From sequence record OR845833.1: a stretch of 1,570 bases of DNA, one strand, 5' to 3'. The stretch is from Escherichia phage ECO95 1-6-1. Of this stretch, positions 985-1,045 are shown piece by piece. Every line of letters starts with the position of its first letter. Positions within the stretch are counted from its first letter, which is position 1. Made by a program: the position numbers and the translations under genes. The notes under the pieces are model-generated. The model was not told where the DNA came from. It did no database searches and saw nothing but the letters and a program-made list of their open reading frames with translations.

Positions 985-1045
985 CCCGCCCCGGGGGGGG
1001 ATCATCCGGCGAAAAAACGATCGCCCCGGACACCGCCCCCCGTCT
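985..1045. other. GC-homopolymer-rich tract after the HNH stop; candidate cos nicking region (tentative)
   Basis: CCCGCCCC followed by G8 (985-1000), giving a CCCCGGGG palindromic core. Repeated CGCCCCGG at 987-994 and 1022-1029, plus CGCCCCCCG at 1034-1042. Non-coding, between the HNH endonuclease and the terminase gene. The assignment as cosN is inference only. Confidence 0.2.

Follow-up and report, generated by a model that had tools for sequence, protein, structure and literature searches.

Positions 985–1045 of the analyzed DNA, located between the HNH endonuclease gene and the small terminase gene (terS), are likely to constitute the core of a HK97-type cos site. According to our sequence comparisons, the two strands would be nicked at positions 1033/1034 and 1043/1044, and a tract of eight G residues (G8), located further upstream, would be a conserved element of the site rather than the place of cleavage. 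All of the positions given below refer to the window, i.e. the whole analyzed stretch of 1,570 nucleotides of Escherichia phage ECO95 1-6-1 (accession no. OR845833.1). Nucleotide sequences, together with relatives whose genome ends have been mapped, show which genes surround the site, where the ends lie and of what type they are, and that the G block is conserved yet polymorphic in length.

Judging from sequence similarity, the region 985–1045 belongs to a lambdoid prophage of the EHEC/Stx family. The part of the window spanning positions 443–1570 shares 97–98% identity with the Stx1a/Stx2c/Stx2a-converting phages BP-4795, 2851 and 1717, and the full window matches prophages of O157:H7, O26 and other E. 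coli (identity of up to 99.4%). Window-like sequences are present in 4175 of the 5426 complete E. coli genomes, in up to 12 places per genome. The source prophage itself could be defective. The initial part of the window (positions 1–442), which includes a PerC-family gene and the sequence upstream of the DUF3950 gene, found no match in the phage collection; 258 E. coli genomes contain it together with the remainder of the window.

The features distinguished in the window are presented in Table 1. The initial annotation had assumed that the region is flanked by HNH and terS genes, and the domain searches bore this out: the upstream ORF contains the HNH domain PF01844 and the downstream one encodes a small terminase of the Terminase_2 family. 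The HNH ORF, which is terminated by a TGA codon at 982–984, encodes a protein of 121 aa, whose homologs are annotated as HNH endonucleases in BP-4795 and many Stx phages; the terS annotation is also present in BP-4795, at the homologous gene. The gene order in BP-4795 is as follows: lysis genes, DUF3950, HNH, a 290-nt gap, terS, terL and a gene annotated as encoding the major capsid protein. As regards the order HNH-cos-terS-terL, HNH and terS are seen in the window itself and terL comes next in BP-4795. The large terminase (TerL) of BP-4795 is composed of a PF03354 ATPase and a PF20441 nuclease domain (HK97 type), and the same composition was found in FSL SP-016 and fEg-Aba01; the domain test was run on the BP-4795 protein, which is encoded outside the window, the shared DNA being 97.7% identical.

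Table 1. Features of the analyzed window, including predicted elements of the putative cos site.
Feature	Position	Strand	Remarks
PerC-family regulator gene	32–271		
DUF3950 gene	353–577	−	
HNH endonuclease gene	619–984	+	PF01844, E=2e-6; HK97 gp74-type packaging accessory nuclease by position
CCCGCCCC linker between the HNH stop codon and the G-run	985–992	+	non-conserved (16/96 relatives)
G8 tract, conserved upstream sub-site of the putative cos	993–1000	+	G-run in 96/96 relatives
27-nt spacer (ATCATCC..A6..CGATCG..CCCC), with the second CGCCCCGG copy	1001–1027	+	sequence variable, length constrained
GGACACC, abutting the predicted cut	1028–1034	+	invariant in 24 non-redundant loci; its final base opens the overhang
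Predicted 10-nt 3′ cohesive end, 5′-CGCCCCCCGT-3′	1034–1043	+	homology to mapped ends
Block 3′ of the predicted cut, CTCACGCAGAG-A6-TTCCCG	1044–1066	+	A6 at 1055–1060 (+12 to +17); conserved
Five ATGTTAAC/GTTAACAT copies	1077–1084, 1083–1090, 1151–1158, 1174–1181, 1191–1198		0.04 expected
terS (start; Terminase_2 small terminase)	1273–1570	+	PF03592, E=4e-9; GTG start; runs past the window end

The initial annotation had listed three elements following the HNH stop codon, i.e. CCCGCCCC with G8, the repeated CGCCCCGG and CGCCCCCCG (1034–1042), and all of them can be read in the sequence. Its description of a near-palindromic core also holds, since the arms 985–994 and 991–1000 are 90% complementary. 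Equally correct was the observation that CGCCCCGG recurs at 987–994 and 1022–1029 (two matches versus 0.09 expected; 1 of 200 shuffles reaches two). A G-run of at least eight residues occurs in 4.6% of mononucleotide shuffles of the window, and alone it is only marginally unusual; the significance of G8 results from its conservation in relatives, not from the run length itself. A direct repeat, TCATCCGGCGAAAAAA/TCACGCAGAGAAAAAA, was also recognized at 1002–1017 and 1045–1060 (75% identity, 43 nt apart), one copy of which comes after the G-run and the other after the predicted overhang. Two GATC (Dam) sites (1000–1003 and 1019–1022) flank the A-tract of the spacer; the second of these is placed inside CGATCG, and GATCG is kept in nearly all close relatives.

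The Stx1 phage Lys8385Vzw (accession no. MT225100) was identified as a cos phage with the 10-nt 3′ cohesive end CGCCCCCCCT by means of PhageTerm, in a paper which is silent on the G-run and other sub-sites (Zhang et al. 2021, PMC7946995). This end aligns with positions 1034–1043 of the window, with 9 of 10 nucleotides matching. The Lys8385Vzw record, re-ordered from the PhageTerm results, ends with ...GGACACCGCCCCCCCT and begins with CTCACGCAGAG (in a longer reading, the end is ...CTGTGACCCGCCCCGGGGGGGATCATCCGGCGAAAAAAACGATCGCTCCGGACACCGCCCCCCCT and the start CTCACGCAGAGAAAAAATTCCCG). The junction shows 95.1% identity to positions 443–1570 of the window, with four differences within 975–1065. 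Both phages share the same succession of elements, comprising the HNH stop codon, CCCGCCCC, a G-run, the spacer, GGACAC, the 10-nt overhang and CTCACGCAGAG; the core of Lys8385Vzw differs from that of the window by G7 instead of G8, A7 instead of A6, CGCTCCGG instead of CGCCCCGG, and an overhang terminating with ...CCCT instead of ...CCGT. Since the overhang homologous to those of the mapped relatives occupies positions 1034–1043, the nicks are predicted at 1043/1044 (top strand) and 1033/1034 (bottom strand), i.e. 43 and 33 nt, respectively, from the end of G8. This assignment relies on a 95%-identical relative mapped by PhageTerm alone, and on more distant phages.

Among the latter is Acinetobacter phage fEg-Aba01, whose 10-nt 3′ ends (5′-CGCCCCCCAT-3′) were determined using PhageTerm and a heat/anneal restriction-fragment gel (PMC7354433). 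In the fEg-Aba01 record the cohesive end is annotated at the last ten bases, with GGACAC directly before it. The sequence GGACACCGCCCCCC is common to this phage and the window (1028–1041; 14/14 nucleotides), and the overhangs are identical in 9 of 10 positions. The two phages also have homologous HNH proteins (34% identity), small terminases of the Terminase_2 family and TerL of the HK97 type; fEg-Aba01 differs in its host genus, in the unrelated spacer, and in the presence of an extra small ORF between HNH and the G-run.

Run-off sequencing of phage SfI revealed a 10-nt gap, TGCCCGCCCC (PMC3636060). The polarity is not stated in the paper; we read the gap, with overlap absent, as what a 3′ overhang would give. 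In the record of SfV, TGCCCGCCCC comes directly after CCGGAC, a sequence which in the window is located at 1026–1031. Shared with the window are thus a 10-nt gap or overhang following CCGGAC, a G-rich block upstream, and an HNH gene immediately upstream; SfV differs by its small terminase (Terminase_4) and by its interrupted G block (GGGGAGGGGCGGG), whose sequence exactly matches the reverse complement of the overhang core.

The ends of HK97 are 10-nt 3′ overhangs, generated with the help of the HNH protein gp74 (HK97 literature), and the HK97 record ends with ...ATGACCGCCGCCAAA. HK97 resembles the window in its gene order (HNH-cos-terS-terL), in having a 10-nt 3′ overhang which is C-rich and follows ..GAC (CGCCGCCAAA), and in the A/T tract situated about 12–30 nt past the cut. 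It differs in its small terminase family and overhang sequence, in having no ATGTTAAC repeats, and in a TerL that is distantly related (the TerL of SfV-like SfII shows approximately 21% identity, among the matches listed).

By alignment, the independently determined ends all fall into a common register within a single conserved layout. The shared register of the mapped phages locates it at the 3′ edge of the region flagged in the initial annotation, and not in its CCCGCCCC/G8 core. The expectation that a cos site lies between HNH and terS was therefore correct in that the interval holds the predicted cleavage site, but neither the CCCGCCCC/G8 palindrome nor the CGCCCCGG repeat is that site. 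The cut sub-region, which had been described as undecidable from sequence, is placed by the mapped relatives at 1034–1043, i.e. in the third of the listed elements. The ends had also been proposed to be of the cosN type; by homology, they are predicted to be 10-nt 3′ overhangs of the HK97 type, as opposed to the 12-nt 5′ overhangs of lambda cosN.

We consider it very unlikely that the near-palindrome itself (985–1000) is nicked, for instance to leave a SfV/SfI-like overhang, xxCCCGCCCC, at 983–992. Such a reading is suggested by the 90% self-complementarity of the arms and by CCCGCCCC, which recurs exactly as the final 8 nt of the SfI overhang, a sequence established experimentally. However, Lys8385Vzw contains the same CCCGCCCC joined to G7, yet its mapped end is situated 44 nt downstream of its own G-run. 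The SfV overhang follows CCGGAC, which in the window does not occur before position 983, and the G-rich block found 41–45 nt upstream of the ends of SfV, HK97 and fEg-Aba01 is the counterpart of G8 and not of an overhang. In addition, just 16 of 96 close relatives contain CCCGCCCC before the G-run; elsewhere it is replaced by CCCGACCC, CCCAACCC, CCCGAGC or CCAGACCC.

A similarity to lambda was also sought directly. The best match to the lambda cosN sequence GGGCGGCGACCT in the window comprised 9 of 12 nucleotides, and the number of matches (2 versus 1.29 expected) was not above chance. The gene content likewise did not indicate a lambda-type cos, the small terminase being of the Terminase_2 and not the Nu1 type, and an HNH gene being present.

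In three contigs from isolate genomes, the sequence breaks off no more than 5 nt from the mapped cut (L051 at −1, L216 at +4 and L220 at +5). Of the contigs breaking near the cut, one starts with TCTCACG and two end with ...CCCTCTCA and ...CCCTCTCAC. These breaks may represent physical ends of phage DNA in the sequenced cultures or, equally, assembly breaks at repeat boundaries, and they were left out of the evidence for the cut.

The 96 close relatives mentioned above were collected from IMG/VR with the use of a downstream anchor. Their overhang decamers are CGCGCCCCCT (62 cases), CGCCCCCCGT (22 cases), CGCCCCCCCT (8 cases) and CGCGCCCCGT (2 cases), besides two 9-mers, and the overhang of the window is therefore a minority variant. 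A G-run is present in all 96, and its length varies as the initial annotation had anticipated, from G5 to G13 in these assemblies: G5 (2), G6 (3), G7 (40), G8 (35), G9 (9), G10 (3), G11 (3) and G13 (1). In 94 close relatives the end of the G-run is separated from GGACACC by 27–30 nt, most commonly by 29 nt; the window combines G8 with a 27-nt spacer, a spacing found in only 3 of the 94. The lengths of the G-run and of the spacer show an apparent negative relation, which partly results from the delimitation of the run (a T-to-G change after the run lengthens the run and shortens the spacer). The middle part of the spacer, CG-CCCC-GG, is replaced by CTTT, CTCC or CCCT in most of the relatives.

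The possibility that CGCCCCGG is a protein-binding repeat was rejected. Its recurrence is significant within the window, but the middle copy reads CGCCCCGG in just 14 of the 96 relatives, its commonest forms being CGCTTTGG (41 relatives) and CGCTCCGG (31 relatives). On this comparison, the palindrome and the 8-mer repeat are features of the lineage of the window only.

Both G5 cases are truncated prophages of the PPompW type, one copy of which carries an insertion sequence. In PPompW prophages (L129, 2044–2060 and 3495–3510; L084), ISEc20 (IS110 family) resides inside the cos G-run (...CTTTC-G7|IS|G5-ATCATCC). The IS-free form reads CTTTC-G5-ATCATCC and has a tRNA region fused straight to the G-run, with the lysis genes and HNH missing. 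These forms indicate that the G-run has served both as a deletion breakpoint and as an IS target.

The polymorphic length of the G-run would also suit a contingency tract, whose phase variation switches the expression of HNH or terS. We regard this as highly improbable: the tract lies outside both ORFs (it begins 8 nt past the stop codon of HNH, with the start of terS 272 nt away), it is spanned by no promoter-like site, and in unrelated hosts the same element keeps a constant distance to the mapped genome ends. It is scarcely credible that the GC-rich dyad acts as a transcription terminator, or as a structured single-strand or RNA element, downstream of HNH, even though self-complementary GC-rich sequence does lie directly past the stop codon. 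A search for terminator-like sites in the region 900–1320 revealed none, and no T-run follows the dyad. The single-strand fold of positions 980–1050 is no more stable than those of shuffled sequences (z=−0.36), Rfam gave no match, and the dyad is not conserved in the 96 relatives.

The G block is also found in several more distant phages, and its distance from the ends (taken to the cohesive-end terminus or the homologous position) is equivalent. It is represented by (i) G9 plus ATCAAATC in HK97, where G9 is followed by ATCA and the block ends 42 nt before the genome end (43 nt between G8 and the overhang end in the window), (ii) GGGGAGGGGCGGG plus TCAAATC in SfV, 41 nt before the overhang end, (iii) G6 in fEg-Aba01, 45 nt from the end, (iv) G8 in Xanthomonas phage phiL7 (TerL 53% identical), 34 nt before the record junction, which itself falls right after CCGGAC, and (v) G5 in Burkholderia phage PR5, 43 nt before CTCACGCGCAGAAAATTT.

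We then examined 80 loci from species-representative genomes, retrieved via HNH alignment; the 450-nt stretch following HNH was set against every remaining 450-nt window of the same loci. On the coding strand, runs of at least seven G residues were present downstream of HNH in 26 of the 80 loci versus 2 of 623 control windows (p=1.5e-24), and runs of at least six in 40 loci versus 24 controls (p=2.1e-26). The enrichment is strand-specific, since runs of at least six C residues were found on the coding strand in only 4 loci (19 of the 623 controls). The pattern G(5 or more)-N(22–36)-GGACA(C/T)C fits 31 loci of Enterobacteriaceae, Acinetobacter, Pseudomonas, Pseudoduganella, Xanthomonas and Halopseudomonas (one hit in the reverse-strand control), and in 25 of these 31 diverse loci the spacer is exactly 29 nt long. 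The Pseudomonas loci without a pure run contain GGGGCGGG, or GGGTGGG plus TCGAAACC, at the same distance.

The elements conserved in 24 non-redundant loci are the G block (−36 to −30, near-invariant), GGACACC, parts of the overhang, (C)TCAC, an A/T tract of 6–7 residues and CCC; the spacer carries almost no information. In the diverse proteobacterial loci, the G block is followed by an A-rich consensus. A conserved G block and GGACACC separated by a variable spacer form the pattern that would be expected for selection on two separate recognition elements. A related but different layout was observed in Pseudomonas phage vB_Pae_CF53a (L132, 610–676; partial record end), in which a perfect 17-nt inverted repeat, AAAATATCCGGCTTCGC/GCGAAGCCGGATATTTT, lies between G8 and C8; the TerL of this phage is 59% identical to the TerL family of the window phage.

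The distribution of the G block bears on whether the G-run has any packaging function at all. With the cut at 1034–1043, it might be only a slippage by-product or an inherited relic adjacent to cos. The run varies among close relatives from 5 to 13 residues with no obvious consequence, the deleted prophage with G5 alone and no HNH still persists, and the published work on HK97 accounts for small terminase binding and cos-dependent stalling without invoking the G block (HK97 papers). A functionless tract nevertheless seems unlikely to us: the block has been retained on one strand and at a near-fixed distance in six proteobacterial groups, in which the sequence of the 29-nt spacer has almost wholly diverged, and it is strongly enriched downstream of HNH (the 26/80 versus 2/623 given above). 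Moreover, the interrupted Pseudomonas block GGGGCGGG, placed at the same spacing, is not merely a product of slippage.

We therefore return to the G block as a conserved upstream element of cos. It accompanies small terminases of different families, i.e. Terminase_2 (the window, FSL SP-016 and fEg-Aba01), Terminase_4 (SfV) and a protein of no Pfam family (HK97 gp1). Each of the three TerL proteins tested combines PF03354 with PF20441, and there is invariably an adjacent HNH gene. Because the G block tracks the TerL/HNH pair and not the small terminase family, we infer that it positions or triggers the nuclease; the protein which reads the block and the step at which it acts are both deduced in this way. 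By analogy, G8 is probably a sub-site for TerL and the HNH nuclease, comparable to lambda cosQ. The stimulation of TerL cleavage by an HNH protein has been established for HK97 gp74 (HK97 papers; review PMC13595911).

In the mechanism that we propose, TerL (encoded just past the window) and the adjacent HNH protein would introduce two nicks 10 nt apart, into the top strand at 1043/1044 and into the bottom strand at 1033/1034, with the invariant GGACACC (1028–1034) flanking the cut. The virion DNA would thereby acquire 10-nt 3′ overhangs, its right end being 5′-CGCCCCCCGT-3′. G8, situated on the last-packaged side at a fixed distance of 27–29 nt before GGACACC, would position or trigger the nuclease, most likely at termination, and the small terminase would be likely to recognize the downstream A6 tract and the ATGTTAAC repeats. 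The G-run and the C-run of the overhang are complementary, forming a 7-nt inverted repeat (992–998/1036–1042). Their pairing was rejected as a general logic of the site, as the G block is also present in phiL7 and PR5, which lack a C-rich overhang.

As for the sequences downstream of the cut, the small terminase (TerS) of HK97 binds the region +15 to +29, including the A-tract (HK97 paper). The equivalent in the window is the conserved CTCACGCAGAG-A6-TTCCC (+1 to +22), and this block (Table 1) is a probable contact region for TerS, given its position. Distant loci share a conserved GTTAA motif approximately 33 nt past the cut. Further downstream, the ATGTTAAC/GTTAACAT copies are probably recognition repeats of TerS, analogous to those of lambda cosB; a perfect 12-nt inverted repeat, GCAAATGTTAAC/GTTAACATTTGC, is located at 1170–1181/1191–1202. 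In Salmonella phage FSL SP-016 (L002, 3097) and other Enterobacteriaceae, ATGTTAAC itself constitutes the start codon region of terS, approximately 40 nt after the cut. The homologous ATGTTAAC of the window (1083) opens a short ORF only, and the start of terS, GTGCTGACA (1273), is approximately 190 nt farther downstream. It seems that the leader in the window has grown by gaining additional copies of the ATGTTAAC motif.

In lambda, termination nicking requires cosQ, an element situated approximately 25–30 bp upstream of cosN. The window resembles the lambda cosQ-cosN-cosB arrangement in having an upstream element on the last-packaged side, a predicted nicking site and downstream small terminase repeats, and G8 occupies the position equivalent to cosQ. 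This likeness would be positional: there is no sequence similarity between cosQ and the G-run, and lambda has 12-nt 5′ overhangs, a Nu1/gpA terminase and no HNH. A further analogy, which we treat as a lead only, is offered by the herpesvirus pac1 signal, in which a T-rich core is flanked by G-rich runs and the terminase cleaves at a fixed distance (review PMC13595911). Common to both may be G homopolymer runs beside an A/T tract, with cleavage at a set distance; pac1 differs in that its virus is eukaryotic, has terminal repeats and uses a terminase of three subunits.

A broader and more tentative idea, which we think possible although not probable, is that the G-rich block is an obligatory, distance-setting cos sub-site of HNH-dependent (HK97-type) terminases across Proteobacteria, fixing the terminal cut 33/43 bp downstream. 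The block might then be read by the HNH/TerL nuclease, or the motor or portal might sense the stiff poly(dG). A literature search revealed no described role of the G tract in HK97-type cos sites, and nothing relevant on the overhang decamers.

The predicted cos site of this phage corresponds to one already mapped in a close relative, and it is likely to be an ordinary HK97-type site of a very common EHEC prophage module. The new lead suggested by the sequence comparisons is that the G block is deeply conserved, on one strand and at a constrained distance, across genera and small terminase families. If it is indeed an obligatory sub-site, the block would be functionally equivalent to cosQ in lambda and to the G-runs in the pac1 signal of herpesviruses, and run slippage and IS insertion would modulate the packaging of individual prophages in a multi-prophage EHEC genome. 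An in vitro packaging system exists for HK97, which makes HNH-dependent terminase choice or timing of the terminal cut directly testable. The predicted cut helps to define the genome ends of prophages, to predict which prophages can still be packaged, and to interpret transduction.
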